This document shows, one piece after another, positions 1-22,401 of a DNA stretch of 64,000 nucleotides. Source of the DNA: a virus (lineage: Duplodnaviria > Caudoviricetes); IMG/VR virus record IMGVR_UViG_3300032225_001595, positions 7,935 to 71,934 of that record; one strand, written 5' to 3'. A program made the position numbers and the translations under genes. Every line of letters starts with the position of its first letter. Position 1 is the stretch's first letter. The notes beneath the pieces are model-generated. The model worked only from the letters and a program-made list of their open reading frames with translations, was not told the origin of the DNA and ran no database searches.

Positions 1-2835
1 ATCAGGGCTGATTTTCATCAGGGTAGCCCTACATTGCATATTGAACGGTTTAAGAAAGCACTTTCTCGGGGTGAAGTTTCTAAGGATGTTGCTACATCGG
101 AAATTAATCGCGCTAAAGACGCTATTTCTAAAACTTCTATGTTTGTTAGGCAGACAAGTTTAAAGAGAAAAAACACAAAGGGGGATATGACCCCGGGTGT
201 TCCTAATGTTTCTTTGGACGCCACGCATGAAATTGTTCATCCTGATTATATTGGTAGTCCAGAAGATTCACTCACTGCAAAGAGGTCCGCGGCTAGGGCA
301 TCTACGTGGGGTCCTGCGGAGGACCCGGGCACTCCTCGTATTAAAGGTGAGGGTGCTGTTGTACGTTCTGGTAGACCGACTCCTGAGGGTGTTCTTACGC
401 GCCCGTTTAAAGCCCCGGCTCCTCCTTCAAAAGTTACTGGGTTTACTAATCAAACCACGTTTAATACAGCAAAACCTGCTGAGCCTGAGTCTGACGAGTA
501 TGGTAATCCGCGAGAATTAGAGGGGACTCGTGATATTGGTGGGGCGAGGTCTGTTGAATCTCAGCGCACCGATGTTTCTAATAAAGATCGTTGGAAAAAT
601 CTTACCCGTACCCCAGCACCTGTTGCACATTTGTTAAGTTTTGCGGGTGAGGCCGGGCGCACAAAAGTTTTATCATCTTTGCCTAAGGAAAACCCTGAAG
701 CACTGGTTGAGGGTGATCATTATCAAGATTCTATTGCCCACCACCTTTTGCATAAAAAGTTAACCCCAACACAGGTAATGGGTCTTAAAGAGGCGTTAAC
801 TAATATTCGTAGTGTTCATGGAAATTCCCTTCAAGTTCCTACTGTACGTAAAGGCAGAGTTGTAAGCTCTACTCAGTTGTGGTTTTGTGGGCATGAAGAT
901 TGTAATAAGTTAGCGGGGCACGATCCTGTTAAAGGGGAGCCTTCCCACGTTGGTAGTTCTTCCCGGGCATGGCAAGCGTACCCTGACAAGGATGATGATA
1001 CAACCTTAAAAGAGCCGTATACGACTTCTGGGTTTGATGCGATAGCTACTCGGCATAAGGAACTCAGCGACGAGCTTGCTTCTGCTACAACACAACTTCA
1101 GGGTCATCAACGGGCGGCAGCACGAATTCAAGGTCAAGCTAGGAATAGGGGAACCAGCCCAACAGATCACCCAGATTGGGAGTCCACGCAAGCTGGTATA
1201 GCTTCTTTGGCACCGCGTATTCCGGTGTTGGCGAAGCAGATTAGACAACACAAGTCGTGGATTAGCGCATATAACTTTAGGCAGCAGAATCAAGGTAATT
1301 ATTTTAATGAAGACGGTTCCGGTTTTGCTGCAGGTACGGAAGAAAAAGATGTTCCTGACCCTAAAGTTGGTAGAATTCTAGAACAGGAACGTCTTGAGCG
1401 CGAAAAAGCTGCGGCAGAAACTTTCCCTGAAACGCAAGAAGCTAATGTTAAAGAAGCTGAGAAAAGAATTTCCGAAGGTAACGCACCTAAGGGAACTCGA
1501 ATAGTTTACGGGTCTAGAACTGCTACGGGTAAGGCTAGGGTTGTTACCGATTTAGGTGGGGAGCCACAAAAACTTACGCTTCCAGTGTCTAAACAAGTTG
1601 GTGAGGCACGTATCGCATATAGTCCTTCTTCGTTACCTGCTGAAAGAACGCAGCGAGCTGAGGCGTCGGAAGCATCATCGACGTTACCTTCTTCTGATTA
1701 CACGGTTCAGGGCGGGCGAGTAAGACGTCGTCAGTGGGAAAAAATTTCGCCGACTGTGAGTTCAACTGGTGCTGGGGAAGCTGCTGAACAATTAGGTCAA
1801 TCATTTCGGGTGGTTGATGGTGCGCGTGTCCCTGCAGGGGGTTGGCGCCGCAATTTACTTGAACCTACTGAAAGTGTGGGTGGTATTTCAGTAGAACAGG
1901 CAAGAGCAGAAAATGCTGCGCGACCATTGTTTCCACCGCGTCGTGGAGTCGCAGCCACACCAGAAACTACTAATGATAGATCACCTGTGGTTGGGCGAGG
2001 ATCTTTTTACACTACTAGTGGTCTTACAGCCAAACCTTCCACGGAAGAATCACCAGAAAAACGTTTTCCTTATTTAGCTAACACCCCATCTGATGAACTA
2101 ACATCGGCTGGACGAAAGCGCAGTATTGACATTGCGAATGCTCGCCGTGATGTAGAAACGCATCAAGGCCATCTTGATTTACTGCGTGGCGGTTCCGTGG
2201 TTGATGCTTTAGCAGATAAACTTGGTAAAGCTAAAGAAGCACACGTTGGTCATCTTAAAACTTTAGAAGCTGCAAGACAAGAAGGCGATTTAAGAGAAAA
2301 TGCCGGATATCATGCAGCAAAAGAAACTGTTGCAAAAAGTCAATCAAGCATAGATGATCTCACTAGTAGGTTAGCTGACGCACGGTCGGGTAAATTGCCC
2401 GATAATGAGGTCACTATTCCTTCTCTTGATACTGCTGTTGCTATTCGTTCAAAAATGGGTGTTGGTGCGGATAAATACGCCGTAGGTTCAGCTATTAAAG
2501 TGGGTTCACCTGAACATAAAGCTGCTTTGGCGTATCACACGTCGGCACTTAAAAACGCTAAATCCGTATTAGCATCTCATGGTGTTGAGCAAACAGCACC
2601 AACTGGTGCGGGTGTTACCCCAAGAACATCTTCCTCGTTAACTGTAGGTACGTACGAACCAGCGACTCGGGCAGGGGTTGAAGCTCAGCGTCGTGGCGAG
2701 GATGAGCCTGAGGCACCTCATGATGTTGATGTCAGGTTGGAAAATACAGCTCGATCTTCGCTAACAGATCGCATTGACGAAGCCACTGAAATGCAAAGAA
2801 GAACTTCCGCGTTTGCTCTTGGGCGTGGCATGTAG
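1..2835 (+). CDS. Very large low-complexity protein, 5'-truncated by the window (>944 aa), with an embedded GreA-like coiled-coil segment
   Basis: Frame 1 is open from base 1 to TAG at 2833-2835 (the track start at 34 is an internal TTG). AARQEGDLRENAGYHAAKE at about 2269-2325 matches the GreA signature. Confidence 0.85.
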   Translation: MRADFHQGSPTLHIERFKKALSRGEVSKDVATSEINRAKDAISKTSMFVRQTSLKRKNTKGDMTPGVPNVSLDATHEIVHPDYIGSPEDSLTAKRSAARASTWGPAEDPGTPRIKGEGAVVRSGRPTPEGVLTRPFKAPAPPSKVTGFTNQTTFNTAKPAEPESDEYGNPRELEGTRDIGGARSVESQRTDVSNKDRWKNLTRTPAPVAHLLSFAGEAGRTKVLSSLPKENPEALVEGDHYQDSIAHHLLHKKLTPTQVMGLKEALTNIRSVHGNSLQVPTVRKGRVVSSTQLWFCGHEDCNKLAGHDPVKGEPSHVGSSSRAWQAYPDKDDDTTLKEPYTTSGFDAIATRHKELSDELASATTQLQGHQRAAARIQGQARNRGTSPTDHPDWESTQAGIASLAPRIPVLAKQIRQHKSWISAYNFRQQNQGNYFNEDGSGFAAGTEEKDVPDPKVGRILEQERLEREKAAAETFPETQEANVKEAEKRISEGNAPKGTRIVYGSRTATGKARVVTDLGGEPQKLTLPVSKQVGEARIAYSPSSLPAERTQRAEASEASSTLPSSDYTVQGGRVRRRQWEKISPTVSSTGAGEAAEQLGQSFRVVDGARVPAGGWRRNLLEPTESVGGISVEQARAENAARPLFPPRRGVAATPETTNDRSPVVGRGSFYTTSGLTAKPSTEESPEKRFPYLANTPSDELTSAGRKRSIDIANARRDVETHQGHLDLLRGGSVVDALADKLGKAKEAHVGHLKTLEAARQEGDLRENAGYHAAKETVAKSQSSIDDLTSRLADARSGKLPDNEVTIPSLDTAVAIRSKMGVGADKYAVGSAIKVGSPEHKAALAYHTSALKNAKSVLASHGVEQTAPTGAGVTPRTSSSLTVGTYEPATRAGVEAQRRGEDEPEAPHDVDVRLENTARSSLTDRIDEATEMQRRTSAFALGRGM

Positions 2836-8095: not shown

Positions 8096-10129
8096 GTGGT
8101 GTTTTCTTTCAAATTATCAGATGATTTTGTTGTCGCATTTAACGGCAAGAAGGTCCCGTGGGGCTATAAAGATGCTGCAGGCAGTTCAGTAGGTGAGATC
8201 ACGTTTTTACGCACTTACAGTCGTATCAAAGCCGATGGAACAAAGGAAACGTGGGCAGAGGTATGCCGTCGAGTCATTGAGGGTATGTACAGTATTCAGA
8301 AGGATTGGTGCAAAACCAATCGTCTTCCTTGGAATGAGAAGAAGGCACAGTCATCAGCTAAAGAGGCGTTTGAGCGCCTTTTTGAGTTGAAGTGGACGCC
8401 ACCGGGTCGTGGTTTGTGGGTCATGGGTACCCAGTTGGTGAACGAAGATAAGAACAGCGCGGCGTTGCAAAATTGTTCTTTTGTTAGCACCGTTGAGATG
8501 ACCCGTTATAACCCTGCCAAGCCGTTTGCGTTTTTGATGGAAGCTTCCATGCTTGGTGTGGGTGTTGGTTTTGACACCAAGGGAGTGGACAAGGGGTTCA
8601 CAATTGGTAACCCAGTGAGAGATGATGAGTCCGGCATTGAGTTTGTGATTCCCGATACCCGTGAGGGGTGGGTTGAGTCAGTTTCAATGTTGATTAATTC
8701 CTATTTGAAACCGGAACCTCAGTTTGCCATAAAGTTTGATTATTCCCAAATCCGTCCAGCGGGTACCCCGATTAAAACTTTCGGTGGAACAGCCGCAGGT
8801 CATGAACCGTTGGAGAGGTTGCATAATGCAATTCGCGGTTTGTTTGACGGACGTAGTGGGGAAGAGTTAGATACTTGTGATATTGCCGATATTGGAAACC
8901 TTATTGGGGTTTGTGTGGTGTCGGGGAATGTTCGTCGTTCAGCCGAGTTGTTGATGGGTGGGTTGAATGATGATGTGTTCCTCAATTTGAAGAACCCCGA
9001 AAGGTTTCCTGAGCGCAATTCTTACGACCCGGCAGCCCCGGGTTGGGGGTGGATGTCCAACAACTCTGTTGAGGTGAAGGTCGGCGATGATTTGTCCGGC
9101 ATTGTGGACAACATTGCCATCAATGGTGAGCCGGGTGTTATTTGGATGGATGTGACCCGTAAGTACGGGCGTCTTTTAGATCAACCAAACAACAAGGATT
9201 GGCGAGCATCCGGGTACAACCCATGTGCTGAGCAGTCGTTGGAGTCGTTTGAGTGTTGCACTTTGGTGGAAACTTATTTGAACCGCCATGACAGCCTTGA
9301 GGATTACAAGCGCACATTAAAGTTTGCGTATTTGTACGCCAAGACCGTGACCCTGCTACCAACCCACTGGGAAGAAACAAATGCGATTATGCAACGCAAC
9401 CGCCGTATTGGTACGTCAATGTCGGGCATTGCTAATTTTAGTGACCGCCGTGGTAATTCCGTACTTCGGGAGTGGATGGACGCTGGTTACATTACTGTTA
9501 CAGAGTATGATCGCAGCTACTCCGAGTGGTTAGGTATTCGTGAGTCCATTAAGACCACAACTGTGAAGCCATCGGGAACCGTATCCATTCTTGCAGGCGA
9601 AAGCCCGGGCGTGCATTGGACCCCGGGTGGGGAATACTTTTTGCGGTCAATTCGTTTTGCTAAAGATGACCCGATGTTGCCGTTGTTTAAGCAATCGGGG
9701 TACCGGGTGGAGGATTCTGTTACGGATCCAGAGACAACAGCAGTTGTGTATTTCCCCATTAAGTCGGATGCGTTGCGTTCTGAGAAGGATGTTTCCATTT
9801 ATGAGAAGGCTTCGTTGGCGGCAATGGCACAGCGCCATTGGTCTGATAATTCCGTGTCAGTGACGGTGTCGTTTGATGCGGAAAAGGAAAAGAAGGATGT
9901 TGGTACGGTTCTTCACATGTTTGATGGCCAGTTGAAAACCATTTCCTTCTTGCCCATGGGTAACGCCACATATCCACAGATGCCGTACACGCAGGTAACT
10001 GAGGAGGAGTATCGCGCATATGGTGATACCCTGTTGCCTGTGGATTTGACAGACGTGTATGCTGGGTTGGCAGCGGATGCTATTGGTGAAAAGTTTTGCA
10101 CGACAGATGCGTGCGAAGTACCTAAATAA
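8096..10129 (+). CDS. nrdJ: Class II (B12-dependent) ribonucleotide reductase, monomeric RTPR type
   Basis: PPGRGLW, QNCSF, YNPCAEQSLESFECCTLVE, TTVKPSGTVS, C-terminal CTTDAC redox pair; GTG start after GAGG. Confidence 0.95.
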   Translation: MVFSFKLSDDFVVAFNGKKVPWGYKDAAGSSVGEITFLRTYSRIKADGTKETWAEVCRRVIEGMYSIQKDWCKTNRLPWNEKKAQSSAKEAFERLFELKWTPPGRGLWVMGTQLVNEDKNSAALQNCSFVSTVEMTRYNPAKPFAFLMEASMLGVGVGFDTKGVDKGFTIGNPVRDDESGIEFVIPDTREGWVESVSMLINSYLKPEPQFAIKFDYSQIRPAGTPIKTFGGTAAGHEPLERLHNAIRGLFDGRSGEELDTCDIADIGNLIGVCVVSGNVRRSAELLMGGLNDDVFLNLKNPERFPERNSYDPAAPGWGWMSNNSVEVKVGDDLSGIVDNIAINGEPGVIWMDVTRKYGRLLDQPNNKDWRASGYNPCAEQSLESFECCTLVETYLNRHDSLEDYKRTLKFAYLYAKTVTLLPTHWEETNAIMQRNRRIGTSMSGIANFSDRRGNSVLREWMDAGYITVTEYDRSYSEWLGIRESIKTTTVKPSGTVSILAGESPGVHWTPGGEYFLRSIRFAKDDPMLPLFKQSGYRVEDSVTDPETTAVVYFPIKSDALRSEKDVSIYEKASLAAMAQRHWSDNSVSVTVSFDAEKEKKDVGTVLHMFDGQLKTISFLPMGNATYPQMPYTQVTEEEYRAYGDTLLPVDLTDVYAGLAADAIGEKFCTTDACEVPK

Positions 10130-20277: not shown

Positions 20278-20568
20278 TTACAGGTTCTCTACCTGTATCT
20301 CTTCTAACTGTTGTTGGAAGTGCTTGACTTGGAGTAGTTCTGTTGCCCAGCGCATGGACTCTCGCAGTCCTTTCATAATGATGACCATGCCTAGCAGTTC
20401 GTTGCCCTGATTTTGGTCGTTCTCTAGGTTGACCTCAATGGTTTGCTCAACAATAGAGAGTAGTAACTCTAGGTTGATGTAGGTCATACCGTCTCTGTCT
20501 ATTATTGACCCCGGCATTTCCTGCTCAACCTTGAGTAGTGTGTCTACATCTAGGGACATGAAGTCCAT
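20278..20568 (-). CDS. Hypothetical protein
   Basis: 96 aa; AAAGGGGAG RBS. Confidence 0.65.
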   Translation of the reverse strand: MDFMSLDVDTLLKVEQEMPGSIIDRDGMTYINLELLLSIVEQTIEVNLENDQNQGNELLGMVIIMKGLRESMRWATELLQVKHFQQQLEEIQVENL

Positions 20569-20666
20569 TATTTCTCCCCTTTACAGTGTTTACATCCGTA
20601 GCGGATGTGCATCCAGTTCTTACATACCTTGCACTTGATGATTTGTTTTTCTCCGTTGAACCCCAT
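20568..20666 (-). CDS. Small Zn-finger-like peptide (CKVC...CKHC), 32 aa
   Basis: AAGGAGG then ATG at 20666; TAATG overlap with the next gene. Confidence 0.55.
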   Translation of the reverse strand: MGFNGEKQIIKCKVCKNWMHIRYGCKHCKGEK

Positions 20667-20687: not shown

Positions 20688-20717
20688 TGAGCCAGTTTAG
20701 CGACATGGCTCAGGTCG
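20688..20717 (-). ncRNA. Predicted H-type pseudoknot, copy C
   Basis: CGAC C TGAGCCA T GTCG CTAAAC TGGCTCA. Confidence 0.75.
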
Positions 20718-20737
20718 TGACAGGTGGAAGGGTCCTG

Positions 20738-20926
20738 TCAGGCTTGCAGCTCTTCCTCATCAGCCATTAGAGCGAGGTTGAGTTGGTGAAACAGAGTGGT
20801 AACCTCTGCTTTGTTGAGGTACACAATATTGGTACCTAGCCAGAGTGAGTACTCCCAACCGACAGTGTTGGGGGCTGTTTTACGCACCCGAATGTCTGTT
20901 CCTGTACTTTGCATGTACATGTCCAT
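20738..20926 (-). CDS. Hypothetical protein
   Basis: 62-aa ORF with AAGGAG RBS. Confidence 0.55.
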   Translation of the reverse strand: MDMYMQSTGTDIRVRKTAPNTVGWEYSLWLGTNIVYLNKAEVTTLFHQLNLALMADEEELQA

Positions 20927-21102
20927 CAGTTGTTCTCCTTGTTTGAGTTGTGGTTGATGTAGGCAATGATGTCAAGCAGCATTAGGCGTGAAAGTTCCCA
21001 ATGGCGCTCGTGAGTGAGCGTGTCACTAAGGTGCAGGTCACGGACAATGGCGCAGTTATTTGCATGAGTTTCTAGCAGGGTGATGATTTCTTGCGTGGTC
21101 AT
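20926..21102 (-). CDS. Hypothetical protein
   Basis: GGAGGT then ATG at 21102. Confidence 0.55.
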   Translation of the reverse strand: MTTQEIITLLETHANNCAIVRDLHLSDTLTHERHWELSRLMLLDIIAYINHNSNKENN

Positions 21103-21263
21103 GATACCTCCCTTGTTAGACATGGATTAGATAGTGACGCTAGGTACATCATGGCGACTGGCATTGCACCTTCATCGCGGGCTTTATCAAAATTTGCCCA
21201 CTGTCGTATCTTTTCTTCATCAGTGAGTGGGTGCCAGATGATACACCTACATGTGTTTTCCAT
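21099..21263 (-). CDS. Hypothetical protein (54 aa, not in the ORF track)
   Basis: AAAAGGGAGAAATACA then ATG at 21263; stop overlaps the next ATG. Confidence 0.55.
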   Translation of the reverse strand: MENTCRCIIWHPLTDEEKIRQWANFDKARDEGAMPVAMMYLASLSNPCLTREVS

Positions 21264-21291
21264 TGTATTTCTCCCTTTTGTTTGTGTTGGA

Positions 21292-21319
21292 TGAGCAGTT
21301 TAGCCACATGCTCAGGTGG
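21292..21319 (-). ncRNA. Predicted H-type pseudoknot, copy B
   Basis: CCAC C TGAGCA T GTGG CTAAAC TGCTCA. Confidence 0.75.
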
Positions 21320-21325
21320 TATTGC

Positions 21326-21928
21326 TCAGCCCTGTGAAAGGTCAGTGCTTGAGATGGCGTAGTCCATGTCACCTTCACCTGTGTAGGTGAGGTCGAGGTC
21401 GAAGTCGCTCTCGTCAATGTCGTCTGGGTCAACACCTAACGGCAACTTGAGTGTGATTGCGATGGTGCAGTCTAGTGTGTACTCCACCTCAGTAGTGAGG
21501 TCAACACCGAGCGCTTCTGCTAGTTCTTTGGCTACGGTACGGTCAAGGTCATCTGAGTCAGCGTCCTTGATGATGTTACCTGCAGCAGTAATTCTGCTCT
21601 GCAGGATGCTGATGGTGTGCAACTGGGAGTCGATTGTGTTCTGCATTGAGGACACAACCTTGTCGTGCTCAGCCTTGTCAACTGTGTTGATTTCTAGCAT
21701 GGTAGTTCCTTTCGGGTAGTTTTTGCACTCTGGATGGCACTTTGCCCCCCAGTTGTTATTTGAACAAGCCCCACATAGGCCTGTTACTAGGTTTAGCATT
21801 ATTGTTCCTAGCGGGCGGTGCTCATAGCACCGTTGAAAGTGGCGGACGACATGAGTGCGGACTCGCCAGAACGCTTCCGCATCGTTATTGCACCGCCAAG
21901 CACGGCATTGGTTTAGGCGTTTACACAT
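21326..21928 (-). CDS. Hypothetical protein with three in-frame SD-preceded ATGs (21928, 21799, 21700)
   Basis: Single open frame of 200 aa; coiled-coil then acidic C-terminal part. Confidence 0.65.
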   Translation of the reverse strand: MCKRLNQCRAWRCNNDAEAFWRVRTHVVRHFQRCYEHRPLGTIMLNLVTGLCGACSNNNWGAKCHPECKNYPKGTTMLEINTVDKAEHDKVVSSMQNTIDSQLHTISILQSRITAAGNIIKDADSDDLDRTVAKELAEALGVDLTTEVEYTLDCTIAITLKLPLGVDPDDIDESDFDLDLTYTGEGDMDYAISSTDLSQG

Positions 21929-21945
21929 GCTCCTCCTTTGGTAGG

Positions 21946-21973
21946 TGAGCAGTTTAGTGTCATGCTCAGGACA
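21946..21973 (-). ncRNA. Predicted H-type pseudoknot, copy A
   Basis: TGTC C TGAGCA T GACA CTAAAC TGCTCA. Confidence 0.75.
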
Positions 21974-21979
21974 GTATTA

Positions 21980-22315
21980 TCAGACGCTAACTACAGTAAA
22001 GCGGGTAGTGGGCTTCTTGCAGTCGGCATACACCGCTGGGTACTTGAGTTTGAGCGTGTCAGTGTCTAGTCGCTCACCGTTAGGCTTATCGAACACCACC
22101 TCAACACCGTTGTAGGTGATGACACCACCGGCACCACCGCGAGCCTTGTCAAGGATTTCGCGTAGGCGCTTTTTGTTTGCTTCGGCTTCGGTCGCTGCTT
22201 TCTGCCACTTGATGTACTCACGAATGGCATCGGCGAGACCTTCCACATCAGAGACCTTGACGGCCTGACTGACGGGAATGTTGAGGACTGAGGTCTCAAC
22301 GGCTGTGTCTTGCAT
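21980..22315 (-). CDS. Hypothetical protein resembling the C-terminal part of YqaJ-type phage proteins
   Basis: Coiled-coil then RLDTDTLKLKYPAVY...TRFTV; AAAGGAGG RBS. Confidence 0.55.
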   Translation of the reverse strand: MQDTAVETSVLNIPVSQAVKVSDVEGLADAIREYIKWQKAATEAEANKKRLREILDKARGGAGGVITYNGVEVVFDKPNGERLDTDTLKLKYPAVYADCKKPTTRFTVVSV

Positions 22316-22401
22316 GGTTCCTCCTTTATTGTGGAGCGGTGTTGCTCCGTGCCTGCCGTGGGACTTGCACCCACGCATGCCACTATGGGCAGGCGACCAA
22401 C

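Follow-up and report, generated by a model that had tools for sequence, protein, structure and literature searches.

Pseudoknots and Genes of the Locus

Three H-type pseudoknots, A, B, and C, are encoded on the minus strand of the window, that is, the whole 64,000-nt stretch analyzed here, which belongs to a 71.9-kb Caudoviricetes contig. Their sequences are exactly as described in the first-pass annotation of this DNA, and the upstream stop codons and SD-led ATGs are also at the positions given there. Pseudoknot A (21946..21973; TGTC-C-TGAGCA-T-GACA-CTAAAC-TGCTCA, read from 21973 to 21946) consists of stem S1 (21973-21970 paired with 21961-21958), a one-nucleotide loop L1 (C at 21969), stem S2 (21968-21963 with 21951-21946), a junction U at 21962, and loop L3 (CUAAAC, 21957-21952). 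Pseudoknot B (21292..21319; CCAC-C-TGAGCA-T-GTGG-CTAAAC-TGCTCA, read from 21319 to 21292) has S1 at 21319-21316 and 21307-21304, L1 at 21315, S2 at 21314-21309 and 21297-21292, the junction U at 21308, and L3 at 21303-21298. Pseudoknot C (20688..20717; CGAC-C-TGAGCCA-T-GTCG-CTAAAC-TGGCTCA, read from 20717 to 20688) has S1 at 20717-20714 and 20704-20701, L1 at 20713, a 7-bp S2 at 20712-20706 and 20694-20688, the junction U at 20705, and L3 at 20700-20695.

The covariance model built from the wider family identifies only A, B, and C in the window, with scores of 47.1 bits (E 2.7e-12), 49.3 bits (E 6.1e-13), and 25.4 bits, respectively, C having one insertion, compensated, in each S2 arm relative to the model; the next match scores 7.8 bits, and by this model the three are the sole copies in the whole contig. 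The shared-core pattern yields three matches in the window and none in 100 shuffles. Taken alone, the nested portion of the fold has low stability (–5.6 to –10.3 kcal/mol).

The adjoining ORFs are on the minus strand as well. The ORF upstream of A (21980..22378, 132 aa), with weak matches to a RecE-like C-terminal part and to phrog_1956, ends with TGA (21982-21980) followed by a second stop, TAA, the distance from the first stop to S1 being 6 nt. A 200-aa ORF (21326..21928) occupies the region between A and B, with an SD-led ATG at 21928, 17 nt past A, and a TGA stop at 21328-21326, 6 nt ahead of B; it is followed by a 54-aa ORF (21099..21263), whose SD-led ATG at 21263 is 28 nt past B. Upstream of C, a 62-aa ORF (20738..20926) ends with TGA (20740-20738) at a distance of 20 nt, and a 7-bp hairpin overlapping the stop codon is possible in this spacer. 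The ORF after C (20568..20666, 32 aa, Cys-rich) has an SD-led ATG at 20666, 21 nt past the pseudoknot. No promoter or terminator signals were found near A, B, and C on the minus strand.

UGAGCA also overlaps the upstream stop at copy B, and GAGCAUG is seen at the next start of copy A. As the flanks across the family show no enrichment of such copies, we consider these to be a coincidence, and a switch based on alternative pairing was rejected. The ATG inside the motif was rejected as a start codon, no SD being present ahead of it, and so were the internal TGA and TAA as back-up stops, their frame relative to the upstream ORF being inconsistent.

Fold and Covariation

Covariation shows that the element folds as an H-type pseudoknot. 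The family consensus comprises S1 of 3–4 bp with a C-G closing pair, L1 (C), S2 of 5–7 Watson–Crick pairs, the junction U, and L3 (CUAAAC), with the total length of 28–30 bases. Pairs were counted in scans that did not demand pairing, and the pairing-filtered alignment was left out as biased. When the collection was scanned with a pattern containing neither the 5′ arm of S1 nor the 3′ arm of S2, all three inner S1 pairs were observed in 74 out of 76 unique matches with downstream TGCT, in 10 dinucleotide combinations, compared to only 7 out of 20 matches lacking TGCT, which are mostly chance matches. The C of the closing pair, at a position left unspecified in the search pattern, is present in all 76. 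In the converse scan, with S1 fixed and both S2 arms free, all five S2 positions are paired in 41 out of 56 matches, the compensated variants including TAAGCA/TGCTT, TAGGCA/TGCCT, TGGGCA/TGCCT, and TAAACA/TGTTT, and the 7-bp S2 is found in three independent forms, one of which is copy C. The covariation noticed at first pass in three copies has thus gained far stronger support, in both stems.

Across 65 distinct sequences, no variation is seen in the loops or the closing pair, L1 always being C; of the 28 alignment columns, 14 are invariant, and another six are nearly invariant. A Vibrio variant has C rather than U at loop position 2, and the Vibrio and crAss-like copies have UUAAAC instead of CUAAAC. 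No conserved flanks or larger RNA were found around the family copies, and the 3′ flank is G-poor at +1 to +8 (G in only 2–9 of 89 copies), which suggests that the pseudoknot is a self-contained module.

Family Size and Distribution

The copies of the family found here number 155 and come from 122 loci in IMG/VR contigs, 22 loci in bacterial genomes of several phyla, and the window. Cultured carriers are SIO1, phig1e, S-SM2, a crAss-like phage from human faeces, a Vibrio phage, and Lentibacter ICBM1-3. The hosts include Alphaproteobacteria, Lactobacillus, cyanobacteria, Vibrio, and Saccharibacteria, among others.

No Rfam 15 family covers the pseudoknot. At gathering thresholds only a tRNA was identified in the window, and 13 pseudoknot-bearing genome loci yielded only tRNAs; with E up to 10, the region of the elements has only three weak, chance-level matches, all on the opposite strand and none overlapping the elements. 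A riboswitch or other catalogued RNA was therefore rejected. The conserved Saccharibacteria locus had suggested a tmRNA fragment, and this was rejected too, since ARAGORN and Rfam identify no tmRNA there or at other loci; the upstream ORF of that locus is an ordinary gene for a 113-aa protein. Literature searches by sequence string and by topic found no paper on this motif in phages. It is well supported that the pseudoknot constitutes a large RNA family, with more than 100 members, missing from Rfam.

Genomic Context

Placement relative to genes was analyzed for 89 non-redundant copies, considering ORFs of 30 or more open codons. It is the upstream gene that the family is associated with, and not a downstream RBS. 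Its constant feature is the upstream stop codon 5–7 nt away: an ORF ends at this distance ahead of S1 in 35 out of 89 copies, compared to two copies at 2–4 nt and none at 0–2 nt. At such a distance, a ribosome whose A site is occupied by the stop codon just touches the pseudoknot. The upstream gene has the same orientation as the pseudoknot in 55 cases and the opposite one in a single case, the respective numbers for the downstream gene being 41 and eight. The position ahead of an RBS, noted earlier for each copy, holds in the window but not as the context of the family, as an SD-led start within 57 nt downstream is found for only 36 out of 89 copies (40%), and the next such start is never closer than 14 nt. 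What comes after other copies is a terminator, a promoter, a tRNA, or a convergent gene: a terminator-like hairpin is present within 80 nt of only five out of 89 copies, the downstream gene is convergent in at least eight, and a tRNA begins 3–6 nt after two. The upstream genes are unrelated, forming 57 clusters among 97, and both flanking genes are diverse.

We also looked for a possible protein partner. Among four phage genomes with the pseudoknot, no protein family is common to three or more. The most common neighbors, class II RNR, NrdH-like, and Hsp20 proteins, reflect related phage groups, each being present in at most two out of four unrelated genomes, and a dedicated co-occurring protein was rejected; with regard to the protein-binding option raised at first pass, a phage-encoded partner is thus unlikely. 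Given the breadth of hosts and the lack of a common phage protein, the partner should be either universal or nonexistent.

Possible Functions

The function that we favor, with somewhat less than an even chance of being the right one, is that of a roadblock that needs no protein and halts machinery travelling along mRNA in the 5′→3′ direction; its activity, direction, and targets are inferred. We count in its favor the covariation of both stems, the invariant loops and closing pair, the self-contained form, the ORF ends 5–7 nt ahead of S1, the distance of 14 nt or more to the next SD-led start, the breadth of hosts, the lack of a common phage protein, and the resemblance to coremin. Coremin (xrRNA-C), known from beny-, cucumo-, and numerous other RNA viruses of eukaryotes (PMC6546385, PMC10520033), stalls Xrn1 and scanning ribosomes and has been modelled with the same pseudoknot topology (PMC6546385, PMC10520033, PMC10321173). 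The phage elements would be transcribed within a minus-strand polycistronic message, each folding alone into a compact pseudoknot seated just past the footprint of the ribosome terminating the upstream ORF. As it is clear of this footprint and 14 nt or more away from the start codon that follows, translation would never need to melt it. The pseudoknot would most likely work like the coremin xrRNA, as a mechanical block to machinery threading the mRNA 5′→3′, the candidate targets being RNase J where the host has it or else 5′-end-tethered RNase E, and also ribosomes failing to terminate, so that a long message would be split into segments stabilized and insulated separately.

A roadblock to RNase J was among the options listed at first pass. 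Its roadblock part gains weight from the resemblance to coremin, but RNase J cannot be the sole target, as a Vibrio phage carries the motif and RNase J is not known from Vibrio; moreover, no RNase J above the family cut-off was found in two out of five pseudoknot-bearing genomes, both of them MAGs. A flaviviral xrRNA is likewise able to block RNase J1 of bacteria (PMC5760640). The copies with a convergent gene (at least eight) or a terminator (five) downstream speak against a roadblock, since nothing there is obviously worth protecting. So do the absence of a second hairpin (hp2), which coremin needs in order to resist Xrn1, the U (C in the Vibrio variant) in place of the required G of coremin at loop position 2, and the lack of Xrn1 resistance in ordinary frameshifting pseudoknots of similar size.

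The tie to the upstream gene suits a 3′-end cap equally well. Such a cap, similar to REP elements, would act after cleavage in the spacer or, if a tRNA follows, after RNase P cleavage, stopping 3′→5′ exonucleases (PNPase, RNase II/R) and thereby stabilizing the upstream cistron; we consider it rather unlikely. Exonucleases of this polarity are known from across the bacteria, which would suit the breadth of hosts, and the cap agrees with the orientation, bound to the upstream gene (55:1) more than to the downstream one (41:8), with ORF ends 5–7 nt away, and with the copies positioned 3–6 nt ahead of a tRNA or ahead of terminators or promoters. However, given the weak nested fold, a plain GC-rich hairpin would be a better block, and the near-invariance of the loops and of the closing pair indicates a particular tertiary fold; the cap would also be redundant where an intrinsic terminator follows, and coremin, the nearest known fold, blocks the 5′→3′ direction. 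The spacing of 5–7 nt is also that of classic recoding pseudoknots, and coremin not only stalls scanning ribosomes, but causes –1 frameshifting in rabbit reticulocyte lysate (22–30% in vitro) and has been used in a frameshift screen run in Escherichia coli (PMC6546385, PMC10520033, PMC10321173). This could point to an action on the terminating ribosome, either insulation of cistrons by stopping post-termination or read-through ribosomes, or a recoding stimulus, and yet we consider this quite improbable. No slippery heptamer is present upstream of A, B, and C or in the family listing, copy A is preceded by tandem stops, the upstream genes are unrelated, and neither the tRNA-adjoining copies nor long spacers such as that of C (20 nt) fit. 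As the spacing varies between 5, 6, and 7 nt, the copies have no common frame that stays open across the pseudoknot, and of the features of a –1 frameshifting or read-through stimulator, only the distance fits.

The two remaining explanations start from the sequence conservation. The loops and a part of S2 hardly vary from phylum to phylum, and each copy in the window precedes an SD-led start, as could be expected if a specific protein or a small molecule were bound there, be it at an autoregulatory operator like that of T4 gene 32, at an S1 or standby site, or by a riboswitch. The chances of this are low in view of the lack of a phage protein shared by at least three of the four genomes, the diversity of flanking genes on both sides, the detectable SD-led start after only 40% of copies, and the absence of Rfam matches to the elements, riboswitches included, with E up to 10. 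A repeat acting at the DNA level (a recombination or boundary sequence, or a protein operator) or chance similarity would agree with the location of the copies at boundaries between genes, in phage genomes that are mosaic, and with the invariant and nearly invariant alignment columns. This is very hard to reconcile with compensatory changes in both stems, paired insertions included, with strict co-orientation with the upstream gene, and with zero matches in shuffled sequence. The repeated cis-acting RNA element proposed at first pass is supported, in the form of a strand-specific pseudoknot.

If ribosomes, RNase J, or scanning by RNase E are indeed blocked by the fold, phage gene expression would have a further layer, both new and very common, providing segmental control of mRNA stability without any protein and extending the biology of xrRNAs from eukaryotic RNA viruses to bacteriophages. 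It would also offer a 28-nt portable, host-independent part for stabilizing or insulating cistrons in synthetic operons. The existence of cultured carriers (SIO1, Lentibacter ICBM1-3, phig1e, S-SM2) makes the family directly testable.

Comparison With Known Systems

Another H-type pseudoknot of phages, the autoregulatory one of T2/T4 gene 32, has a 1-nt L1 that spans an S2 of 6–7 bp, and the comparison drawn at first pass extends to loop and stem geometry only. It is a single-copy structure in the 5′ leader of one gene, where it nucleates gp32 binding, whereas the family described here has other conserved loops and follows unrelated genes in unrelated phages. REP elements of enterobacteria are, similarly to the phage family, repeated extragenic structures past stop codons, with an influence on how stable the segments of an operon are; however, they are plain imperfect palindromes, host-specific and blocking 3′→5′ exonucleases, in contrast to a pseudoknot with invariant loops distributed across phyla.

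In luteovirid –1 frameshifting pseudoknots (BWYV, PEMV-1), an A-rich L3 lies in the S1 minor groove. Their dimensions are comparable to those of coremin hp1 with the spacer, and L1 is docked in the S2 major groove (PMC10321173). They act 5–8 nt past the A-site codon and require a slippery heptamer and an extended frame, while the phage family has neither. Ordinary frameshifting pseudoknots of similar size, e.g., that of BWYV, are not resistant to Xrn1 (PMC10321173).

The same H-type topology as in the phage form is known for xrRNA-WCC (Sanxia picorna-like virus 5 and selected variants), where S2 is canonical, loop bases pairing with bases after the A-rich stretch, and both L1 and S2 are essential (PMC10321173). 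A canonical S2 and a 1-nt L1 are likewise found in the phage family. On the other hand, S2 of xrRNA-WCC has only 3 bp, its L1 is G, and an 8-nt loop of the phage type is not described there; it stimulates frameshifting without hp2, but still needs hp2 against Xrn1 (PMC10321173).

The closest known relative of the phage pseudoknot is the coremin xrRNA. Both have a short 5′ hairpin (3–5 bp in coremin) with a stem free to covary and a C-G closing pair, the first loop base being a pyrimidine that serves as the 1-nt L1, and both are usually located just past an ORF (the last one in the case of coremin), tandem copies occurring in both. In the coremin hairpin, structure matters more than sequence, and the closing pair is C-G or U-A (PMC6546385); the same is seen in phage S1, with inner pairs in 74 out of 76 matches and closing C in 76 out of 76. 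The hairpin is followed in both by YUAAAC-U, with AAA, C, and U essential in coremin and invariant in the phages. In the coremin spacer, (G)UUAAACUAC, the essential bases are A15–A17, C18, U19, and A20 (PMC6546385, PMC10520033, PMC10321173); phage CUAAAC-UGC has identical AAA, C, and U, and G at the position of A20, while UUAAAC of the Vibrio and crAss-like copies reads as in coremin. Coremin tolerates C at the start of the spacer and the A20C change (PMC6546385, PMC10321173).

The differences concern the loop, S2, and the surroundings. The coremin loop is YGAD or YGNNAD, with G needed at position 2, some hepta- and octaloops starting with CG being tolerated (PMC10520033); in the phage loop, C-U-G-A-G-C-A-U, the first base (Y) and the last two (A-D) fit, but position 2 is U (C in Vibrio) and not G. 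The pseudoknot pairing of classic coremin is non-canonical, while S2 of the phages comprises 5–7 Watson–Crick pairs. Coremin needs hp2 directly downstream for Xrn1 resistance, whereas the 3′ flank of the phage element is G-poor and unstructured, without hp2, and the element resides in DNA viruses whose hosts have no Xrn1. We regard it as possible but doubtful that the phage pseudoknot truly corresponds to coremin in both structure and function, perhaps even as its homologue. If so, it would represent the first class of nuclease- and ribosome-resistant RNAs in DNA viruses of bacteria, common to phages of many phyla and eukaryotic RNA viruses and punctuating polycistronic messages.

Pseudoknots of the window

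Direct reading of the sequence confirmed the three H-type pseudoknots A (21973–21946), B (21319–21292) and C (20717–20688) on the minus strand exactly as written in the first-pass annotation. A 132-aa ORF ending in TGA, with TAA next, precedes A by 6 nt; B lies 6 nt past the stop of a 200-aa ORF, and C 20 nt past that of a 62-aa ORF. SD-led ATGs come 17, 28 and 21 nt after A, B and C, respectively, the upstream stops and ATG distances being as claimed. The shared-core pattern has three matches in the window vs. none in 100 shuffles, and a covariance model built from the wider family of such pseudoknots identifies only A, B and C in both the window and the whole contig (49.3, 47.1 and 25.4 bits; next match, 7.8 bits). 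None of the Rfam 15 families matches A, B or C, whether at gathering thresholds or with E relaxed to 10.

The IMG/VR contig is 71.9 kb long (the window comprises bases 7935–71934), with G+C content of 46% and estimated completeness of about 75%. On the minus strand, the stretches separating the copies have no predicted sigma-70-type promoter or intrinsic terminator, and A, B and C seem to lie within a single polycistronic unit made up of small genes. Relatives of the DUF932 protein adjoining the copies come mainly from actinophages (of Mycobacterium, Streptomyces, Arthrobacter and Gordonia), and GP88 is likewise a mycobacteriophage family; hence, by protein similarity, an actinobacterial host is plausible.

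The upstream stop of copy B sits within a second UGAGCA (GGC-UGA-GCA; 21320–21331, minus strand), which can base-pair with the 3′ side of stem 2 (S2; 21292–21297), yielding the nested minimum-energy fold, and for copy A a second GAGCAUG stands at the next start codon. The family as a whole is not enriched for such duplicates, which permit alternative nested pairing, so they are probably coincidental. The 20-nt spacer ahead of C folds into a 7-bp hairpin (GACAGG.../...CCUGUC; 20718–20743, minus strand) that takes in the stop codon of the 62-aa ORF.

Elsewhere in the window, a 944-aa ORF with an open 5′ end (1–2835, plus strand) matches the GreA/GreB N-terminal domain at residues 752–795, which is unusual for a phage protein. 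A tRNA-Ile gene with anticodon TAT occupies 2832–2906 on the minus strand. No pseudoknot comes after the class II (B12-dependent) ribonucleotide reductase gene (8096–10129, plus strand), unlike SIO1-type phages, where one follows this gene.

Covariation and conservation in the family

We counted 155 copies of the family, spread over 122 viral loci and 22 bacterial-genome loci, with three in the window. The first scan of IMG/VR, with a pattern fixing only loop L1, the 5′ arm of S2, the junction, the G of stem 1 (S1), and loop L3, yielded more than 117 loci, most of which also have the unspecified parts: the 5′ arm of S1 is complementary, and TGCTC follows. With no pairing filter applied, all three inner S1 pairs are formed in 74 of 76 unique matches with downstream TGCT, in 10 dinucleotide combinations, and the C of the closing pair, absent from the pattern, is present in all 76. 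Among matches lacking TGCT, mostly chance ones, all three S1 pairs are formed in only 7 of 20. In the second scan, S1 was held at ACAC/GTGT with both S2 arms free: pairing is retained at five of five S2 positions in 41 out of 56 matches, compensated variants including TAAGCA/TGCTT, TAGGCA/TGCCT, TGGGCA/TGCCT and TAAACA/TGTTT, along with G-U intermediates; about ten are chance matches without complementarity. Moreover, the 7-bp S2 arose three times in the family, copy C among them. Taken together, the unfiltered S1 counts, the free-arm S2 counts and the 7-bp forms support both stems of the H-type pseudoknot by covariation.

Across 65 distinct sequences, 14 of 28 alignment columns never vary; they include the C of L1, the U of the junction, the whole of CUAAAC, the C-G pair closing S1, and the A-U pair where S2 meets the junction. 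Another six are at least 90% conserved. No conserved flank was found around the copies, and the 8 nt 3′ of S2 are strongly depleted in G. To this family the window contributes A and B, clean examples of the modal 6-nt spacing, and C, which combines a long spacer with one of the three independent 7-bp S2 forms.

Taxonomic distribution

The strict pattern, searched in one genome per species, has 25 matches, 13 of them in Candidatus Saccharibacteria MAGs; the remainder come from Akkermansia, Anaerolineaceae, Ignavibacteriales, Pseudomonadota, Actinomycetes, Nostoc, Lactiplantibacillus, Planctomycetia, and others. Among phages, the covariance model identifies the pseudoknot in Roseobacter phage SIO1 (where it follows the gene for ribonucleotide reductase), Lactobacillus phage phig1e, Synechococcus phage S-SM2, a crAss-like phage of human faecal origin, a Vibrio phage and, as a weaker match, Erwinia phage Calisson; SIO1, phig1e and the Vibrio phage have one copy each. 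BLAST alone adds Lentibacter phages ICBM1-3, Celeribacter phage P12053L, and other Roseobacter phages to those with the motif.

Several Saccharibacteria MAGs share a conserved locus (L145:2000-2715; also L121, L123, L127, L132, L133 and L135) with the pseudoknot after a 113-aa ORF. In L145, the neighboring ORFs of 153 and 713 aa are nuclease-like and ATPase-like by appearance. The locus has the look of a mobile or defence island that has integrated. A tmRNA at this locus was ruled out, as an ordinary ORF precedes the motif.

Gene context

The genes on either side are diverse (for the upstream ORFs, 57 clusters among 97, including ribonucleotide reductase, Hsp20 and capsid-like proteins), the upstream stop codon being the constant feature. 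Counting open frames of at least 30 codons in 89 non-redundant copies, we observe 35 with the ORF end 5–7 nt ahead of S1, none at 0–2 nt, two at 2–4 nt, and 7–8 per 3-nt bin from 8 to 16 nt. At 5–7 nt, as is established for recoding signals, a ribosome with the stop codon in the A site touches the downstream structure and need not open it. The downstream context varies: an SD-led start is found 14–57 nt away in 36 of the 89 copies (the closest at 14 nt), a terminator-like hairpin in five, and a TTGACA-type promoter in three. Hence, the location ahead of an RBS is true for A, B and C, but is not a family rule. Upstream, the coding strand agrees with the pseudoknot strand in 55 cases and opposes it in one; downstream, the counts are 41 and eight. 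The constant stop and upstream co-orientation, against this varied downstream context, indicate that the element belongs to the 3′ side of the preceding gene.

In two cases (L131:7045-7150 and L072:133-160), a co-oriented tRNA-Asp gene follows the pseudoknot at a distance of 3 and 6 nt, so that RNase P cleavage would make the pseudoknot the 3′ terminus of the upstream RNA. Two tandem pseudoknots share one spacer in L044, L069, L166 and L176 (92 nt apart, between genes for ribonucleotide reductase and a glutaredoxin-like protein) and in L018 and L046 (60 nt apart). In L004, L028, L084, L167, L191 and relatives, an Hsp20-like gene is followed by a GC-rich hairpin, which may be a second structured element, GGAU, and the pseudoknot; the next gene encodes an FmdB-like zinc-ribbon protein in some of these loci and is a different one in others.

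Possible function

Our preferred reading, held at somewhat less than even confidence, is that the pseudoknot would act as a protein-independent roadblock to machinery moving 5′ to 3′ on mRNA. It is physically reasonable, since purified bacterial RNase J1 is blocked by a flaviviral xrRNA (PMC5760640). Of five pseudoknot-bearing genomes, three (the Saccharibacteria MAG, Nostoc and Lactiplantibacillus) have RNase J (TIGR00649) scoring above the cut-off, but not the Akkermansia and Pseudomonadota MAGs, which may be incomplete or mis-binned; with the motif also present in a Vibrio phage, RNase J cannot be the only target. Further candidates would be 5′-end-tethered RNase E and ribosomes failing to terminate. 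The main rival, a 3′-end cap for the upstream cistron, explains the association with the upstream gene, the convergent-gene cases and the tRNA-adjacent copies at least as well as a roadblock. We consider it rather improbable; it leaves unexplained both the highly specific loops and the weakness of the helices, the nested part having –5.6 to –10.3 kcal/mol.

Programmed recoding is unlikely, given no slippery heptamer upstream, tandem stops before copy A, and a distance shifting between 5, 6 and 7 nt. A dedicated partner encoded by the phages is also unlikely, since no protein family is shared by at least three of four pseudoknot-bearing genomes (the window's contig, SIO1, phig1e and Vibrio phage D456) at BLASTP E ≤ 1e-3, a comparison limited by BLASTP sensitivity and the incomplete contig.

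Comparison with coremin

The closest known relative of the phage element is coremin (xrRNA-C) of plant and other eukaryotic RNA viruses, which stalls Xrn1, blocks scanning ribosomes, stimulates –1 frameshifting by 22–30% in rabbit reticulocyte lysate, and has served in a frameshift screen with expression in E. coli (papers by Dilweg and Olsthoorn: PMC6546385, PMC10520033, PMC10321173). Its hairpin of 3–5 bp has a stem that may covary and a closing pair that must be C-G, with U-A tolerated (PMC6546385), and the loop consensus is YGAD or YGNNAD (PMC10520033). The hairpin is followed by the spacer (G)UUAAACUAC, where AAA, C, U and A are essential, and by a second hairpin, hp2; the current model is an H-type pseudoknot with 1-nt L1, in which the loop pairs with the bases following AAA to form S2 and the A-rich strand occupies the minor groove of S1 (PMC6546385, PMC10520033, PMC10321173). 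Watson-Crick variants of coremin S2 are known (PMC10321173).

Our literature search found no report of coremin or xrRNA elements in phages. The phage element and coremin agree in topology, in the closing pair, in having a pyrimidine as L1, and in YUAAAC-U, and both occur as tandem copies, in some loci of the phage family and in some plant viruses. L3 is UUAAAC, as in the coremin spacer, in Vibrio phage D456 (L211:1498-1525) and crAss-like cr7_1 (L215:1199-1226), rather than CUAAAC. On the other hand, the phage loop C-UGAGCA-U lacks the G at position 2 required in coremin, S2 consists of 5–7 Watson-Crick pairs, unlike coremin, and hp2 is absent. We therefore place the phage element outside the coremin family, as a variant that probably works in a similar way.
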